19,203 bases of DNA, taken from NCBI GenBank assembly GCA_964388035.1, contig CAYLZE010000043.1, positions 5,735 to 24,937 on the forward strand, written 5' to 3'. The notes below the pieces were generated by a model. The model saw only the letters and a program-made list of their open reading frames with translations, did no database searches and was not told the DNA's origin. This document shows positions 2 through 18,626 of the stretch, in pieces; within the stretch, counting starts at the first letter, position 1, and each line of letters opens with the position of its first letter. A program made the translations under genes and the position numbers. The DNA is from an uncultured archaeon (GTDB lineage: Archaea; Asgardarchaeota; Lokiarchaeia; Sigyniarchaeales; SOKP01).

Positions 2-1126
2 AGATGGGTTAATACCAATAAAATCCCGATTAAAAATGATAAAGGAGAAGTCTACCAAATTCTGGATGTATCAATGGATATCACGGAGTTAAAGCTGTTT
101 GAAAATAAAATCAAGGATCTCGCCAAATTTCCCGAAGAAAATCCTTTTCCCGTAATGAGAATTGATGAAGAAAAAATATTATATGCTAATAATCCAGCTA
201 AAAAAATGCTCAACCTCCAAGAGGAAAAAAGGATACCCCCATTTCTTAATTCAATGTTGAAAGAAGTTAAAATCTCCAAATCTTTGCAGAGATACGAACA
301 GGAAATAAACAATCGGTATTTATCAATCATTATTGCACCGATTGAAGGAGAGTCTTATTATAATATCTATTGCATGGACATTACAAAAAGAAAGTTAGCT
401 GAAAAAAAATTAACTGAATTCATTTCGAATATTTCCCACGAAATCAAGACCCCATTAACCGCCATAATGCAATCGATTGAAAACTTAAAAAGGTTTGAAG
501 ATTCCTTAACAGTGGAGCAGAAAAAAGATCTCTACGACACCATAAATCAAAATTTAATAAATACATCTGAAATTATTCAAGATTTACTTCTTAGATCTTA
601 TTTAGATGAGAAAAAAATAAAATTAAATTTCGATCTATTTAAAGTGGATGACCTAGTTAAATCGGCCGTTAAATCACTAGCACCTCAAATTAAGATCAAA
701 AATATTGATCTCACTTGTGAAATTGGAAAAGATTTAATAATTCGAGGTGATTATAAAAGAATTGAGCAAGTTTTGCGAATTATTCTGAGTAATGCCGTAA
801 AATACACTAAGAATAGAGGTTCTGTTAAAATAGAAGCCCATGATTATGTTGAAGATTCCTTAAACGTAGGGATATCTGATGGAACCTTGATAAGAATAAC
901 GGATGATGGAATCGGGATTGATAATGAAGATTTATCCCATCTCTTTGAAAGGTATTTTAGAGGGAAAAATGTAAAACAGGTCAGCGGAACGGGGTTAGGA
1001 TTGCCCATTGCGAAAGAATTAATGGAACTTCACAGTAGTAAAATTCATGTAGAAAGTGAGATCGGAAAAGGTTCCTCATTTTCCTTGATCTTTCCAAATA
1101 TTAACCTAAAAGAAAAATATAAATAA
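2..1126 (+). CDS. PAS-domain sensor histidine kinase (PAC-PAS-HisKA-HATPase_c), 5'-truncated by the window edge
   Basis: The frame is open from base 2 (RWVNTNKIPIKNDKGEVYQILDVSMDITELK, a PAC-type motif), so ATG 74 is internal. PAS-like FPEENPFPVMRIDEEKILYANNPA; H box SHEIKTPL; N box ILSNAVKY; G1 DDGIGI; F box LFERYFR; G2 GTGLGL. No TM segment in the visible part. Confidence 0.95.
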   Translation, partial: RWVNTNKIPIKNDKGEVYQILDVSMDITELKLFENKIKDLAKFPEENPFPVMRIDEEKILYANNPAKKMLNLQEEKRIPPFLNSMLKEVKISKSLQRYEQEINNRYLSIIIAPIEGESYYNIYCMDITKRKLAEKKLTEFISNISHEIKTPLTAIMQSIENLKRFEDSLTVEQKKDLYDTINQNLINTSEIIQDLLLRSYLDEKKIKLNFDLFKVDDLVKSAVKSLAPQIKIKNIDLTCEIGKDLIIRGDYKRIEQVLRIILSNAVKYTKNRGSVKIEAHDYVEDSLNVGISDGTLIRITDDGIGIDNEDLSHLFERYFRGKNVKQVSGTGLGLPIAKELMELHSSKIHVESEIGKGSSFSLIFPNINLKEKYK

Positions 1127-1253: not shown

Positions 1254-2132
1254 ATGCACCATTCTTTAATTCTTGTCGTTGAAGATAATATGGATATCTT
1301 GAAGAATCTGAAGATTACGCTGGAATCCTCCAATTATAATGTGATTACAGCATTGGGTGCGGAAAAAGCTTTAAAAGAACTTTCTACGATGGATAAGGTT
1401 CCAGATTTAATTTTGAGCGATATTATGATGCCGGTCATAGATGGATATGAATTTTTTTTAAAGATTTCTTCTAATCCTACATGGAATTCCATTCCCTTTA
1501 TTTTTCTTTCAGCAAAAAGTTCCCCAGATGATGTTAGGTTAGGTAAGTTATTGGGAGCTGATGATTATATTACTAAGCCGTTTCAGATGGAAGATTTACT
1601 AGCGGTAATAAAAGGTAAAATACGGCGTAATGAACATGCCAAATTAATAAATAATGAGCTTAATAAATCTTCCATATTAACATCTCTTAAAAAAGCGTCG
1701 AAAAGTGAACCAAAAAAGTTAGATATCCTTTTGTTCATTGTATATTGGGATGAAGAATATGGTCCTACTTTGAAAGATTATTGTCCTAAGGATGTAATAG
1801 ATAAACCAACTATCGAAAAGATTAGCGAAGAAGTATTTAATAGTTCCCGCTTGATTTTTAATGATAACACAAAATTGAAAGGAGAAACTATTTTATTGGA
1901 CATGCATTATTTAAAAAAAAGGGGATACCTCTTCTTTGATTCTTATCCGGATGACACTAAAAATGCTAAGGAGTTCCCATATATGATTGGAGTCATCTCT
2001 CCTTCCATCACATACCTTCAATCCTTATCCATAAAAAAAGTATTGAATAACCTTTCAATGTGCGTAAAAAGAGAAGAAAAAAACAATATAAGTTATTTTT
2101 GGCAAAATATTGTAAACATTCTCTTAGAATAG
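1254..2132 (+). CDS. Response regulator: N-terminal receiver (REC) + C-terminal putative longin/u-DENN-like domain (paralog 1)
   Basis: REC motifs VVEDN, LSDIMMP (phospho-acceptor D56), FLSAK, KPF. C-terminal part starts LFIVYWDEEYGPTLKDYCP and has a longin-like strand/helix order. REC call is firm; the longin call is by-eye inference. Confidence 0.9.
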   Translation: MHHSLILVVEDNMDILKNLKITLESSNYNVITALGAEKALKELSTMDKVPDLILSDIMMPVIDGYEFFLKISSNPTWNSIPFIFLSAKSSPDDVRLGKLLGADDYITKPFQMEDLLAVIKGKIRRNEHAKLINNELNKSSILTSLKKASKSEPKKLDILLFIVYWDEEYGPTLKDYCPKDVIDKPTIEKISEEVFNSSRLIFNDNTKLKGETILLDMHYLKKRGYLFFDSYPDDTKNAKEFPYMIGVISPSITYLQSLSIKKVLNNLSMCVKREEKNNISYFWQNIVNILLE

Positions 2133-2215
2133 GACACCACCAGTCACTTCTTTTGAAGAGAAATTTTAATATTACTGTGACATTTAAATTACATGTATTT
2201 AGATAAAAAATAAAT

Positions 2216-2225
2216 ATTTAAATAG
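2216..2225 (+). promoter_or_regulatory. Candidate archaeal TATA box for response regulator 2
   Basis: ATTTAAATAG preceded by an A-rich BRE-like stretch, 69 nt before ATG 2285; identical 10-mer at 4706-4715. Confidence 0.4.
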
Positions 2226-2284
2226 AAAGTCAAATTTCCTTAAAAATTGATTTTTTAATTATAAAGGTTTTCTTTAATTAAAAT

Positions 2285-3193
2285 ATGTTATCTGAGACAA
2301 CTAAGGAAAATAATTTAATATTAGTAGTGGATGATGATCCTCTCATTTTAGAAAGTGTCTCAATAATGTTAGAACTGAATAATTTCCGTGTCATTACGGC
2401 AAAAAATGGGGAACGCGCAATTGAAAAACTCTTAAAATTAGAAAGTCCCCCTGATATAATCTTGAGCGATATATGCATGCCTGGAATGGATGGGTATCAA
2501 TTCTTCATGAATGTAATGAAAAATCCTCAGTGGAGTCAAATACCCTTTATTTTTTTAACCGGACTCTCCTCTCCGAAAGAAATACGATTCGCTAAAAGCA
2601 TGGGGGTGGATGATTATATCACTAAACCTTTTAAAGAAAATGACCTATTAGCTATTATTATAGGAAAACTCACTCGAAAAAGTAGATCTCTCCAGGTAGA
2701 AAATACAATTAAAATTAATCATCTGAACTTTGAACGAGAAATTACTTTAAATATTAAAAATCAAATGGATGTTATTTTGATTTTCTACATATGGGATGAT
2801 GCTGATGGACCATTATTGGATAAATCTTATCCCGAAGATCTTCCAAATAAAAGTAAAATTGAAAAGTTAGGAGCACATTTATTCCATTCCTCGCGTCTAA
2901 TTTATGGAGAAAATCCGATTAATGAAGCCGAGGATCTCTTACTTAGAATGAATTCTATCCAAAAAGATTGTTTTATCTATTTCGATTACATCCCCGATGC
3001 ACAAACAAGGGCAAAAAAAAAAGAATACATGATTGCCTTGATTGCCCCAACTATTACATATTATCATACATTTGAAATTCAAAAATTATTTAAAGAACTC
3101 TCTGCTGAAATCAAGAATAAGAGCAATATTAAACTAAAACGATATTGGGATAATTGCATGGTAATTTTAAGTACGTCGAAATGGAGTGAATAA
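2285..3193 (+). CDS. Response regulator: N-terminal receiver (REC) + C-terminal putative longin/u-DENN-like domain (paralog 2)
   Basis: REC motifs VVDDD, LSDICMP (D62), FLTG, KPF. C-terminal LIFYIWDDADGPLLDKSYP ... FDYIPDAQTRAKKKEYMIALIAP is collinear with paralog 1. Confidence 0.9.
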   Translation: MLSETTKENNLILVVDDDPLILESVSIMLELNNFRVITAKNGERAIEKLLKLESPPDIILSDICMPGMDGYQFFMNVMKNPQWSQIPFIFLTGLSSPKEIRFAKSMGVDDYITKPFKENDLLAIIIGKLTRKSRSLQVENTIKINHLNFEREITLNIKNQMDVILIFYIWDDADGPLLDKSYPEDLPNKSKIEKLGAHLFHSSRLIYGENPINEAEDLLLRMNSIQKDCFIYFDYIPDAQTRAKKKEYMIALIAPTITYYHTFEIQKLFKELSAEIKNKSNIKLKRYWDNCMVILSTSKWSE

Positions 3194-4777: not shown

Positions 4778-5803
4778 ATGATCGTCATTTCTTCTCCAAA
4801 TGGATTAATCGGGATTAAAAAATCTATTGAAATATTAAAAAAGGGAGGTTCAGCCATGGATGCTGTTGAAGCAGGGATTCGATTGGTAGAATCAAACCCC
4901 ATTGACCATAGCGTGGGCTTTGGTGGGTTTCCAAATATTCGGGGTGAAGTGGAGCTCGATGCAGGAATAATGGACGGTAAATCATTGAATGCAGGAGCTG
5001 TTGGAGCCATGAAAGAATTTAAACACCCGATTTCCGTCGCAAGAAAGATCATAGACCTTTTACCTCATGTATTTCTCGTGGGCGCTGGTGCAGAACATTT
5101 TGCAGATCAAATGGGTTTTAAAAAATCAAAATTGCTCACTCCCGAAATTCAGAAATTCTGGGAACTGCGTTTGAGAGCAGAATCACCCGATATCGATTTA
5201 AAAAAATTAAAAAAATAACCAGACTTGTGGAAACTCACGGAAATCGGAACAGATCCCGAAAAAACTGCTCAATGGATGGTTCAAAAATCCTCGGAGGATC
5301 CTAACTTTAAAAAATTAGTGGAAGATTTTAATAAATTATGGATGATAACCGGGACGGTTAATTTTCTTGCCCAAGATAAGGAAGGAAATATTTGTGCTGG
5401 AACAAGCACGAGTGGATGGGCGGGAAAATACCCCGGTAGATTAGGGGATTCTCCAATAATTGGGGCGGGTTTGTACGCAGATAATCGTTATGGAGCAGCG
5501 GCTTGTACTGGCATGGGGGAGATGGCGATACGAGCTAGCACTGCACGTAGCGTTATTTTTTATCTTAAAATGGGTTATTCCTTATTGGATGCGGGACGGC
5601 AAGCAATGATCGATCTAAATGATTTAGAAGGTCGTTATTTAAGCCGCATGAATATTGTCATGATGGACAAAGATGGGAATCCTGCTGCCTTCAGTAATGA
5701 TAAAAATCAAAAATATATTTACATTACAGAAAAAATGAGTGAACCTAACATAGAAACTCGCATTCATGTTCCAACAAAAATGCAATGGAACAAAAATAAT
5801 TAA
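4778..5803 (+). pseudogene. Ntn-hydrolase type-2 asparaginase (glycosylasparaginase / isoaspartyl peptidase family) interrupted by one in-frame TAA at 5216-5218
   Basis: ORFs 4778-5218 and 5225-5803 are in the same frame (...DLKKLKK*PDLWKL...). N-part: AMDAVEAG, SVGFGGFPN, ELDAGIMDG, HPISVAR. C-part: G|TVNF nucleophile Thr (5354-5356), TSTSG, PGRLGDSPIIGAG, CTGMGE. Family call is firm; pseudogene vs functional split vs sequencing error is unresolved. Confidence 0.8.
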
Positions 5804-16724: not shown

Positions 16725-17705
16725 TTGATTGTCAACGAGATCAATATTAAGCTGGTATTGTTCGGACTAGGAGGTATTGGAAAAACTTCCATCGTTAATA
16801 GCTTCTTGGAGCAGCAGATTTCCAAGAAATACTATCCAACGATTGGTTCAAGCATTTCTAAACATGAATATAGGTTGCCCAAATTTATTGTTAAATTGAA
16901 CGTGTGGGACGTTGGTGGCCAGCGCTCATTCAATCCATTGAATCCCGTTTATTTTAATAATAATGATGCCGCGTTTTTAATTTTTGATTTATCTAATCCC
17001 CAAGAATCGCTAAAAGAAATAAAAGAGGTGTATTTGCCAAGTCTGATTGAAAAATCGGAGGATTGCATCTCTTATATTATCGGAAATAAATTAGATTTAA
17101 TAAAGACTGATGATGAATTAAAGCAAATTACGGAAGAATTAAGATTTCCAAATCTCCCTCTTGTTTATGTATCCGCATTAGAAAATAACAATATAAATGA
17201 AGTATTCGAATTAATCATTTTTCATTTTTTACAAGATTTGGAAGTCAAATCTCCTTCAAAAAAGTTTTCAGGGATTTCTGAAGGTTTTTTAAATTACATT
17301 GGCAAGAAAGAAGAGGAGTTATCCCGAGTATTAATAAATAAAATTGATACTAAGACATTAAGATTAGAAGATTTGATAATGCCAGATATAGAAACTACCG
17401 TCCTTCCTACATCCGATATTAATATCGCCAGCATTCCTTATCCAAAACCTATTACTGGGGATCTTAAAAATATTGAGCGCATCATAGAAGAACTTATTGA
17501 ATATAACACAGAGCTATTAAGTGATGTGAAGGATAAAATTTTGCAATTAAAAAAAACGCCCATTGATCAATTAAACCTACAAATCGATAAAATTTCCCTT
17601 GATCTTGACACGTTAAAAATGAACTTGGAGAAAGAAATAGAGGAAATGCTTAAATTTAAAGGTCCTGAAACTGATAAAAAAACTGATAAAATTACATTGA
17701 AGTAG
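16725..17705 (+). CDS. Ras-superfamily (Rab-like) small GTPase with ~150-aa C-terminal extension ending in a helical hairpin
   Basis: G1 GLGGIGKTS, G2 YYPTIG, G3 WDVGGQ, G4 NKLD, G5 VSAL. No C-terminal Cys/CAAX. Confidence 0.93.
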   Translation: MIVNEINIKLVLFGLGGIGKTSIVNSFLEQQISKKYYPTIGSSISKHEYRLPKFIVKLNVWDVGGQRSFNPLNPVYFNNNDAAFLIFDLSNPQESLKEIKEVYLPSLIEKSEDCISYIIGNKLDLIKTDDELKQITEELRFPNLPLVYVSALENNNINEVFELIIFHFLQDLEVKSPSKKFSGISEGFLNYIGKKEEELSRVLINKIDTKTLRLEDLIMPDIETTVLPTSDINIASIPYPKPITGDLKNIERIIEELIEYNTELLSDVKDKILQLKKTPIDQLNLQIDKISLDLDTLKMNLEKEIEEMLKFKGPETDKKTDKITLK

Positions 17706-17715
17706 GTAATTTAAA

Positions 17716-17955
17716 ATGTCAGAAGAATTGATTAATTCAAAACAACAGTTTGTTGATAAATTTATACAGAATCTAACCAAAATAGAAGCATTAATTAGAA
17801 CGTTAAGTTCACAGAATGCAGAACAAATAGTAAGCGCGATAGATGATACTTCAAAGAAATTAGAGAAAATGAAAACAGAATTTATTGAAACCCATGAATC
17901 GTTTACTAAATCTTCCATGAAGGTGGAGAATAAAGGATTAGAAGAAAATTCATAA
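17716..17955 (+). CDS. Small alpha-helical protein (stand-alone helical hairpin)
   Basis: 79-aa ORF 10 nt after the GTPase stop, amphipathic heptad pattern, aligns with the C-termini of both neighbours. Confidence 0.75.
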   Translation: MSEELINSKQQFVDKFIQNLTKIEALIRTLSSQNAEQIVSAIDDTSKKLEKMKTEFIETHESFTKSSMKVENKGLEENS

Positions 17956-17978
17956 TTGATGTGAAAAAGGTGTGAAAA

Positions 17979-18626
17979 TTGTTTAAAAAAAAAATGACAG
18001 AAGTAAACGTAAAGGATTTTGAAAAATTAAGTGAACGCATGGATAAATTCGAGCAGAAATTTTTGGAACAAAAAATAAGTTATGATGATCAACTCGAGCG
18101 CATTCATAATGAGCTTCTCGAAATTAAAGAACTCTTTGTCATAAATCAAAAATTAGTCGAACGAGATAAAGGTTATGAAGATAGAATTACCAATTTAAAA
18201 ACGGAAGTAACGGAAATGCAAACCTTACTCACCAGAAATCAGAGAGATATCGAAGAACACATTAAAACGCAAGAGGAAATCATCGTTAGTCTCATTAACA
18301 AATTTAATGACCAAGCGTTATCAAAATTCAATCAATTCACGGCTGAAATTGAAGAACTGAAAAACCAGCAAGATGTTTTGAGAATCTCTTATACCGTTAA
18401 TGAAAAAAAATTAATAGAAAAAATTAAAGATACGATATCCTCTGAAATCAAAAATGCTGTAAAAGAGAAAGAAAAAGAGATTTTAATGAATCTTTGGATT
18501 CGAGATCTACGAGAAATAATTTCTAATTTTGAAAAATTGAAAAGAATGAATCCAGAAGAATTTAATTTAAAGCTCAATCAAATTGCGGATATTGTTGATT
18601 CATTTAAAAAAAAGCTTCAGGCTTGA
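17979..18626 (+). CDS. Coiled-coil protein with C-terminal helical hairpin
   Basis: 215-aa ORF 23 nt after the previous stop; SD-like AGGTG at 17968-17972 before TTG (ATG 17994 is an alternative); long heptad-rich stretch with almost no Pro/Gly. Confidence 0.85.
   Translation: MFKKKMTEVNVKDFEKLSERMDKFEQKFLEQKISYDDQLERIHNELLEIKELFVINQKLVERDKGYEDRITNLKTEVTEMQTLLTRNQRDIEEHIKTQEEIIVSLINKFNDQALSKFNQFTAEIEELKNQQDVLRISYTVNEKKLIEKIKDTISSEIKNAVKEKEKEILMNLWIRDLREIISNFEKLKRMNPEEFNLKLNQIADIVDSFKKKLQA

Follow-up and report, generated by a model that had tools for sequence, protein, structure and literature searches.

A 19,203-nt stretch of DNA from an uncultured archaeon of the Lokiarchaeia (contig CAYLZE010000043.1, positions 5,735 to 24,937 of the forward strand; hereafter the window, meaning this whole stretch) contains two tandem genes, regulator 1 (1254-2132) and regulator 2 (2285-3193), each encoding an N-terminal receiver (REC) domain and a C-terminal domain predicted to be a longin. 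The two proteins differ at one conserved column, where regulator 2 carries a candidate arginine finger (R242) and regulator 1 an asparagine (N237). We put the probability at about one half that these are response regulators with a longin output of the FLCN/NPRL2/SMCR8/C9orf72 type, gated by the adjacent histidine kinase and acting on a Rag-like GTPase of the same gene cassette, most probably in the role of a GTPase-activating protein (GAP), regulator 1 being maybe a non-catalytic partner. The architecture, the fold prediction, the motif conservation, the cassette and the recurrence of arginine loss are direct observations of the present analysis.

Tandem receiver-longin regulators

Both regulators are encoded on the + strand, immediately following a histidine kinase gene of which the window has the 3' part; this gene bears HisKA and HATPase_c domains and ends 127 bp before regulator 1. 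Its start lies upstream of the window, at position 4928 of locus L051 on the same contig, and its PAS domains are encoded in that upstream part. Translation of positions 1254-2129 and 2285-3190 gives deduced proteins of 292 and 302 amino acid (aa) residues for regulators 1 and 2, respectively. The features of the window on which the analysis relies are as follows:

2..1126, + strand: PAS-HisKA-HATPase_c histidine kinase, 3' part (Pfam HisKA 1.5e-12, HATPase_c 5.9e-26)
1254..2132, + strand: REC-longin response regulator 1, Arg-less paralogue (Response_reg 9.9e-24, residues 6-119; longin against profile A2, E 1.7e-49)
1419..1421, + strand: phospho-acceptor Asp56 of regulator 1, aligned to the receiver Asp column, which is kept in 50/50 family members examined
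1746..1766, + strand: WDxxxGP motif of regulator 1 (W165-D166 ... G170-P171), from A2 conservation and the HMMER alignment to C9orf72 W33-D34/G38-P39
1962..1964, + strand: Asn237 codon AAT of regulator 1, at the arginine-finger column; read from the DNA and recurring in metagenome contigs
2285..3193, + strand: REC-longin response regulator 2, Arg-bearing paralogue (Response_reg 1.7e-25, residues 12-125; AlphaFold2 longin model of residues 158-300)
2468..2470, + strand: phospho-acceptor Asp62 of regulator 2, from the receiver alignment
2792..2812, + strand: WDxxxGP motif of regulator 2 (W170-D171 ... G175-P176), model residues W13, D14, G18 and P19, with GP at the start of β2 (18-25)
3008..3010, + strand: Arg242 codon AGG of regulator 2, candidate arginine finger in the β4-β5 loop (model R85, between β4, 70-80, and β5, 88-97)

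The N-terminal receivers (PF00072) scored 84 and 90 bits in regulators 1 and 2, respectively, against a cut-off of 30.2. The receiver quintet (acidic pair, phospho-acceptor Asp, Thr/Ser and Lys) is complete in both proteins and in all 50 relatives examined, and in most related loci the gene immediately upstream of REC-longin encodes a homologue of the kinase. With a full quintet and an adjacent kinase, both genes are, by sequence, response regulators of a two-component system. The active site of the receiver was also complete in 15/15 Arg-less genome copies, and these are therefore not pseudo-receivers.

BLASTP aligned the two regulators over 289 residues at 40% identity (E 2e-76); the sole gap, of one residue, falls in the inter-domain linker, so that the 23-residue motif stretches of both proteins align without gaps. 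The first-pass annotation, made from the letters of the window, had described such a gapless pairing of N237 with R242, with codons at 1962-1964 and 3008-3010 and the spacing D238-x3-R242-x5-Y248 in regulator 2; the alignment, the codons (AAT and AGG) and the spacing in the translation were all confirmed. Regulator 1 lacks the arginine only, its W, D, G, P and FD motif all being kept. Both codons, and the reading frame through the A-run that follows R242, are identical in Logan contigs from three salt-marsh metagenome runs, which possibly derive from one campaign and possibly include the source sample; the nearest variant in these contigs is an Ala/Val change at 1966, with no other nearby. No RNA dataset is listed as containing the window stretch.

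The last ~145 residues of both regulators had no match in Pfam or NCBIfam, the receiver alone being matched, and no Pfam family matched the longin domain in any of 32 members. A word-based homologue search with the C-terminal region retrieved the query itself as the sole match, and a longer search returned mostly longin proteins without REC, recorded as 'hypothetical' in Promethearchaeota/Lokiarchaeota metagenome-assembled genomes. ESM Atlas yielded sub-threshold leads alone (<=0.81), one of them a Promethearchaeota cluster with Pfam NPR2 in 19% of its members. A profile of the two C-terminal domains, run against 1.8 billion representatives, detected 174 relatives, most of ~295 aa and with the domain at the C-terminus, as well as 4-5 further copies in the 5.5-Mb genome of the window itself.

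The structure of the domain was predicted with AlphaFold2 for residues 158-300 of regulator 2 from an alignment of 32 genome-derived sequences (mean predicted local distance difference test, pLDDT, 88; predicted template modelling score 0.84); a single-sequence prediction of full regulator 2 had a pLDDT of 41 and was unusable. The model comprises β1 (7-14), β2 (18-25), α1 (32-50), β3 (59-65), β4 (70-80), β5 (88-97), α2 (102-120) and α3 (127-139), and this β-β-α-β-β-β-α-α order is that of a longin. The top Foldseek matches were GATOR1 chain 9o5d_D (E 2e-4), FLCN-FNIP2 (6ulg_N), the Lokiarchaeal longin 8yqg and the yeast SEA complex. VIA-align gave Z-scores of 15.3 for 8yqg, 13.2 for the Lst4 longin, 13.1 for the FLCN-complex chain 6nzd_H and 12.3 for C9orf72, with SNARE, TRAPP and sedlin longins at 9-11 (DENND1 and TRAPP at 10-11) and MglB at 8.5. 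In the Protein Data Bank (PDB) search with the family profile, the sole near-significant match was the C9orf72 longin, colinear over 130 residues at E 0.065; at this sub-threshold value the HMMER alignment places the WDxxxGP of the family onto C9orf72 W33-D34/G38-P39. These comparisons support, at the level of a structural model, the assignment of the C-terminal domains as longins whose closest eukaryotic structural matches are those of FLCN-FNIP, GATOR1 and C9orf72. Both regulators end a few residues past helix α3, and lack a DENN or NPRL2-specific C-terminal domain; yeast Lst7 is likewise longin-only (bioRxiv 10.1101/2020.04.16.045708). An MglB-type roadblock was considered and ruled out, the model having no N-terminal helix and two C-terminal helices, and MglB scoring below all GAP-type longins.

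A larger second group of proteins carries the same WDxxxGP/VRGG longin at the N-terminus (L006:1-1974 on the - strand, L032-L035, L045-L050), with TPR repeats or other regions after it (300-1100 aa); the L006 protein has a second longin/roadblock-like region at its C-terminus. The loop arginine is invariant in the 9/9 proteins of this group that were aligned (A4), and a PDB profile search with this alignment found nothing relevant.

In the model, R242 (model R85) sits in the β4-β5 loop (81-87), and GP (G18-P19), present in both window genes, opens β2. The cryo-electron microscopy preprint on the C9orf72-SMCR8 complex (CSW) puts SMCR8 R147 in the βL4-βL5 loop and equates it with FLCN R164, and the SMCR8 longin by itself is inactive (bioRxiv 10.1101/2020.04.16.045708). 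The GP motif at the start of β2 is reported for FLCN, NPRL2, SMCR8 and C9orf72 and reported absent from FNIP2, NPRL3 and longins of the guanine nucleotide exchange factor (GEF) type, and W33-D34 is reported as essential in C9orf72 (PMC12290439). In the alignment and profile of the 32 genome-derived domains (A2), no domain departs from W or G, and at least 90% keep each of D, P and the loop Arg. Among 144 representatives of the family at 50% clustering, the column is Arg in 103 and Arg-less in 41; W is kept in 115/121, G in 115/124 and P in 114/124. By this conservation, a typical family member combines the C9orf72-type WD and GP with the SMCR8/FLCN-type loop Arg in one chain, and the Asn/Arg difference in the window, falling on a column so widely occupied by arginine, is not a matter of chance. 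The model thus supports R242 as a candidate arginine finger, equivalent to SMCR8 R147 and FLCN R164 by loop position alone. An 'asparagine thumb' role for N237, as in RapGAP/TSC2, was rejected because Arg-less copies elsewhere have K, Q, H, L, E, Y or deletions at this column, and because the GTPase of the cassette keeps its own catalytic Gln.

The first-pass annotation had also proposed phosphorylation gating and longins of the GAP-complex type, and had named as checks a position of the arginine in the β4-β5 loop and its conservation across homologues. The complete REC sites with the kinase directly upstream agree with the first of these; the second is supported by the model together with Foldseek and VIA-align, the third by the model set beside the published SMCR8/FLCN finger loop, and the last by the column counts.

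The cassette and its Rag-like GTPase

When neighbouring open reading frames (ORFs) were clustered, a small GTPase ranked second only to the kinase among the neighbours of REC-longin genes. At L051 the order on one strand is ArsR-type regulator, GTPase, KaiC-like ATPase, PAS kinase and regulators 1 and 2, where the first four genes, on the strand of the regulators, are:

L051:1813-2157: ArsR-type regulator (contig C43, upstream of the window)
L051:2207-2803: Rag-like GTPase, 198 aa (Pfam Gtr1_RagA 4e-23, Arf 2e-19)
L051:3296-4774: KaiC-like ATPase, full-length and double-domain (Pfam KaiC 9e-108)
L051:4928-6860: PAS histidine kinase (HisKA, HATPase_c, PAS)

Of the 21 extended loci, 15 have the genes for ArsR, GTPase, kinase and REC-longin together on a single strand, with gaps that often span just 3-30 bp, a count that includes both L051 and a second cassette on contig C96 of the same genome. 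The best PDB matches of the GTPase were Lokiarchaeal Rag-like proteins (8yl2; 8zla/9m28), followed by Arl3 and RagC/D; the P-loop, the switch II Gln and an HKxD G4 motif are all retained in its orthologues, which lack a roadblock domain. Of the 22 GTPase paralogues in the genome, precisely those two that adjoin REC-longin genes are the closest. Moreover, a short orthologue (183-194 aa, 44-49% identical) was present in 5/5 genomes with REC-longin and in 0/5 without it, the latter five having multidomain GTPase paralogues alone (37-41% identical). The gene order is kept across genera and families and therefore points to a functional link; this conserved Rag-like partner is a supporting fact beyond those of the first-pass annotation. 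The longin domain itself was found in 126/151 genomes of the order and in 5/25 families sampled across the phylum.

No paper describing an ArsR-GTPase-kinase-REC-longin cassette was found in a literature search. In strain MK-D1, GTPase and longin genes as a rule do not share operons (Tran et al.), and the cassette is an exception to that separation. In a distant family (G243), a tight operon with 3-bp gaps at L073:3427-7953 on the - strand encodes a REC-longin, a GTPase-containing protein of 465 aa, a histidine kinase and a GTPase of 236 aa, which is the same logic as that of the cassette with other GTPase types.

The KaiC-like ATPase is inserted between GTPase and kinase at L051 and in 0/20 other extended loci, and may either feed into the kinase as a further input or have been inserted there without any relation to it. 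A run of N at L051:5590-5700 (contig C43, just 5' of the window start) interrupts the PAS region of the kinase gene. Elsewhere in the window, ORFs 4778-5218 and 5225-5803 share a frame with one stop codon between them and look like one split hydrolase gene, and a separate group of small-GTPase genes at 16725-18626, 13 kb downstream, lies outside the REC-longin cassette.

Recurrent arginine loss, proposed mechanism and alternatives

Paired copies were found in six genomes, with the following states at the arginine column:

G000 (window): tandem; N in regulator 1, R in regulator 2
G008: tandem; one copy lacks 3 residues and has Lys at the site, the other has R
G022: tandem; one copy has R, the other lacks 6 residues and has GA in place of GP
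G012: tandem; one copy is degenerate and broken into fragments, the other has R
G015: copies separated by 4 kb; one has Q, with GA in place of GP, the other R
G003: tandem; R in both copies, of which the second is truncated to 105 aa

A Lys variant at the column was also detected in G023. The family tree, although poorly resolved, has ~16 changes of arginine state, and regulator 1 is 33-43% identical to other Arg-less copies versus 45-47% to Arg-bearing cassette genes. A single clade of 'Arg-less partners' is rejected on account of these state changes and of regulator 1 being no closer to the other Arg-less copies, and on the same two grounds the losses are recurrent and independent. As far as the sequences tell, the arginine has been lost repeatedly, often but not solely in a tandem or second copy.

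From these data we infer phospho-dependent dimerisation, a heterodimer, GAP activity and the GAP target, as follows. The PAS kinase would phosphorylate the receiver domains, whose dimerisation would join two longin domains into a dimer acting on the Rag-like GTPase of the cassette, most probably as a GAP that would supply the loop arginine (R242 here), next to the WD and GP motifs. The usual one-gene form would presumably be a homodimer with two arginines, and this is likely the ground state because most genomes carry a single Arg-bearing copy; the unequal pair is likely a derived, lineage-specific state. In this genome the regulator gene is duplicated and the upstream copy has lost the arginine alone, and regulator 1 may pair with regulator 2 as a C9orf72-like non-catalytic subunit. 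The best-supported view is of a longin regulator under kinase control that serves a dedicated Rag-like GTPase, most probably as a GAP; a heterodimer of catalytic and non-catalytic subunits is plausible from gene adjacency and the unequal arginine. Complex prediction of the two longin domains gave an interface score (ipSAE) of 0.01, which is evidence neither way.

Several observations weigh against this interpretation. In most genomes the gene occurs as one Arg-bearing copy or as several that are dispersed, and 15 further multi-copy genomes have no tandem pair. In genus g11, an orphan Arg-less subfamily (L078-L085) has no kinase or GTPase within 4 kb and no adjacent ArsR gene; these orphans have K, H, E, Y or Q at the column with an intact receiver, and the same genomes hold an Arg-bearing cassette copy. 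In G174 and G211, which represent one lineage, the Arg-less gene is the only copy. Given such orphan and sole copies, the arginine is not essential, and its loss does not by itself point to a partner. Furthermore, the tree behind the count of state changes is poorly resolved, and the 15/21 synteny count comes from related, non-independent genomes. Likeness to the eukaryotic families is below significance in sequence (best E 0.065, no Pfam matches), R242 was compared with FLCN and SMCR8 at the level of the loop, and the GAP reading is built on sequence, model and gene context. Finally, dimers of the longin and roadblock kinds may equally serve as GEFs or scaffolds (PMC3747258).

It is possible, if on balance unlikely, that each regulator forms a homodimer and that regulator 1 is a diverged, non-obligate paralogue, serving as a phosphate sink, a competitor for kinase or GTPase, or a GTPase-binding scaffold that is not a GAP; the unequal arginine would then reflect divergence after duplication and not heterodimer design. 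The prevalence of the single-copy Arg-bearing form, the orphan and sole Arg-less copies, and the identities within the window pair (40%, each member being nearer, at 45-47%, to cassette genes of other genomes) all agree with such divergence, and a precedent exists in bacteria, where branched systems of one kinase and two regulators with sink regulators are established. However, regulator 1 keeps every other invariant pocket residue (W, D, G, P and the FD motif) and shares a transcription unit with regulator 2, while the eukaryotic relatives are unequal longin pairs and the isolated SMCR8 longin is inactive. Plain decay of regulator 1, with N237 the product of neutral drift, is very improbable: degenerate second copies do occur elsewhere (split in G012, 105 aa in G003, deletion plus GA in G022), but the 292-aa frame of regulator 1 is intact, its receiver quintet and its W, D, G, P, F and D columns are kept, and its sequence is stable across metagenome contigs bar the one neighbouring Ala/Val variant.

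A different objection concerns the output itself, which could be that of a GEF, an effector or a localisation platform, the conserved Arg being structural, for instance in closing the β4-β5 hairpin against the conserved Asp. Many longin/roadblock dimers are GEFs or scaffolds (DENN, TRAPP, Mon1-Ccz1 and Ragulator; PMC3747258), the arginine is dispensable in several lineages, and DENND1 and TRAPP longins also reach Z 10-11 against the model. We nevertheless regard this as improbable, since the GP motif reportedly marks GAP longins alone and is missing from GEF longins (PMC12290439), the highest eukaryotic structural scores belong to longins of GAP complexes, and the Arg sits in the published finger loop.

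Returning to the kinase-gated GAP that we favour, a wider evolutionary scenario can be formulated, which we put forward as speculation and consider rather unlikely as a whole. Duplication of a homodimeric REC-longin GAP, followed by loss of the finger in one copy, would have happened several times in Loki-type archaea and produced kinase-gated heterodimers of a catalytic and a C9orf72-like subunit, an independent living replay of the origin of FLCN-FNIP, NPRL2-NPRL3 and SMCR8-C9orf72, the gene for the target GTPase being part of the operon itself.

Relation to known longin and roadblock systems

Three unequal longin heterodimers, on which eukaryotic nutrient and membrane-traffic signalling depends, switch off Rag/Arf GTPases. 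The cassette is a small prokaryotic counterpart in which a sensor kinase, one or more regulators and the likely target GTPase are encoded together, and natural variants with two, one or no arginine fingers exist. It may repeat in miniature how the GTPase off-switches of eukaryotes became unequal pairs, and four soluble proteins would be enough to ask if Asgard longins act as GAPs, if they are gated by phosphorylation and if one Arg per dimer suffices.

The first-pass annotation had proposed an archaeal parallel of FLCN-FNIP and GATOR1. The longin type and the loop Arg stand; C9orf72-SMCR8, a GAP for ARF/RAB, is the closer system, as regulator 1 keeps WD and GP. The C9orf72 longin (Z 12.3) was the best PDB sequence match and has the same WDxxxGP spacing, at W33-D34/G38-P39; SMCR8 carries the β4-β5 Arg (R147), and C9orf72, like regulator 1, has WD and GP and no finger. 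This likeness is sub-threshold in sequence (E 0.065), and the window proteins are known from genes and a model. Unlike C9orf72-SMCR8, they have no DENN domain and no WDR41, possess an additional N-terminal receiver, and carry WD on the Arg-bearing subunit as well.

FLCN-FNIP (GAP for RagC/D) and the NPRL2-NPRL3 pair of GATOR1 (GAP for RagA/B) were the top Foldseek and VIA-align matches. Both place the arginine finger on one longin of a heterodimer and have Rag substrates, and the cassette GTPase is Rag-like. In contrast to regulator 1, which has GP, FNIP and NPRL3 are reported to lack it (PMC12290439), so that regulator 1 resembles C9orf72 more than either of them. DENN, DEPDC5 and Ragulator are missing here, and the archaeal GTPase is without the C-terminal roadblock of Rag proteins.

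Among prokaryotes, MglA-MglB of Myxococcus with the receiver protein RomR likewise joins a small GTPase to a dimer of the roadblock/longin superfamily and a receiver domain, and the REC-Roadblock-like (NitrOD3) regulators of Thaumarchaeota (PMC5847659) also couple this superfamily to receiver signalling. MglB, however, is a roadblock rather than a longin (Z 8.5), has no fused REC, and differs in catalytic strategy and motifs.

The nearest published proteins are Asgard longins of the same domain kind and the same phylum as the window regulators: 'NPRL2-like' and 'FLCN-SMCR8-type' longins, some of them fused to two-component domains (Liu et al., bioRxiv 10.1101/2020.10.19.343400), and FLCN/SMCR8-type longins for which a GP motif and an arginine finger are reported (Traffic 2025, PMC12290439). 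The main text of these two works does not describe a fixed Rag-like GTPase partner, paralogue pairs of unequal arginine or an archaeal WD motif. The fusion class and the Asgard GP/Arg longins are thus already published, and what is new here is the natural pair with and without the arginine, together with its recurrent losses.

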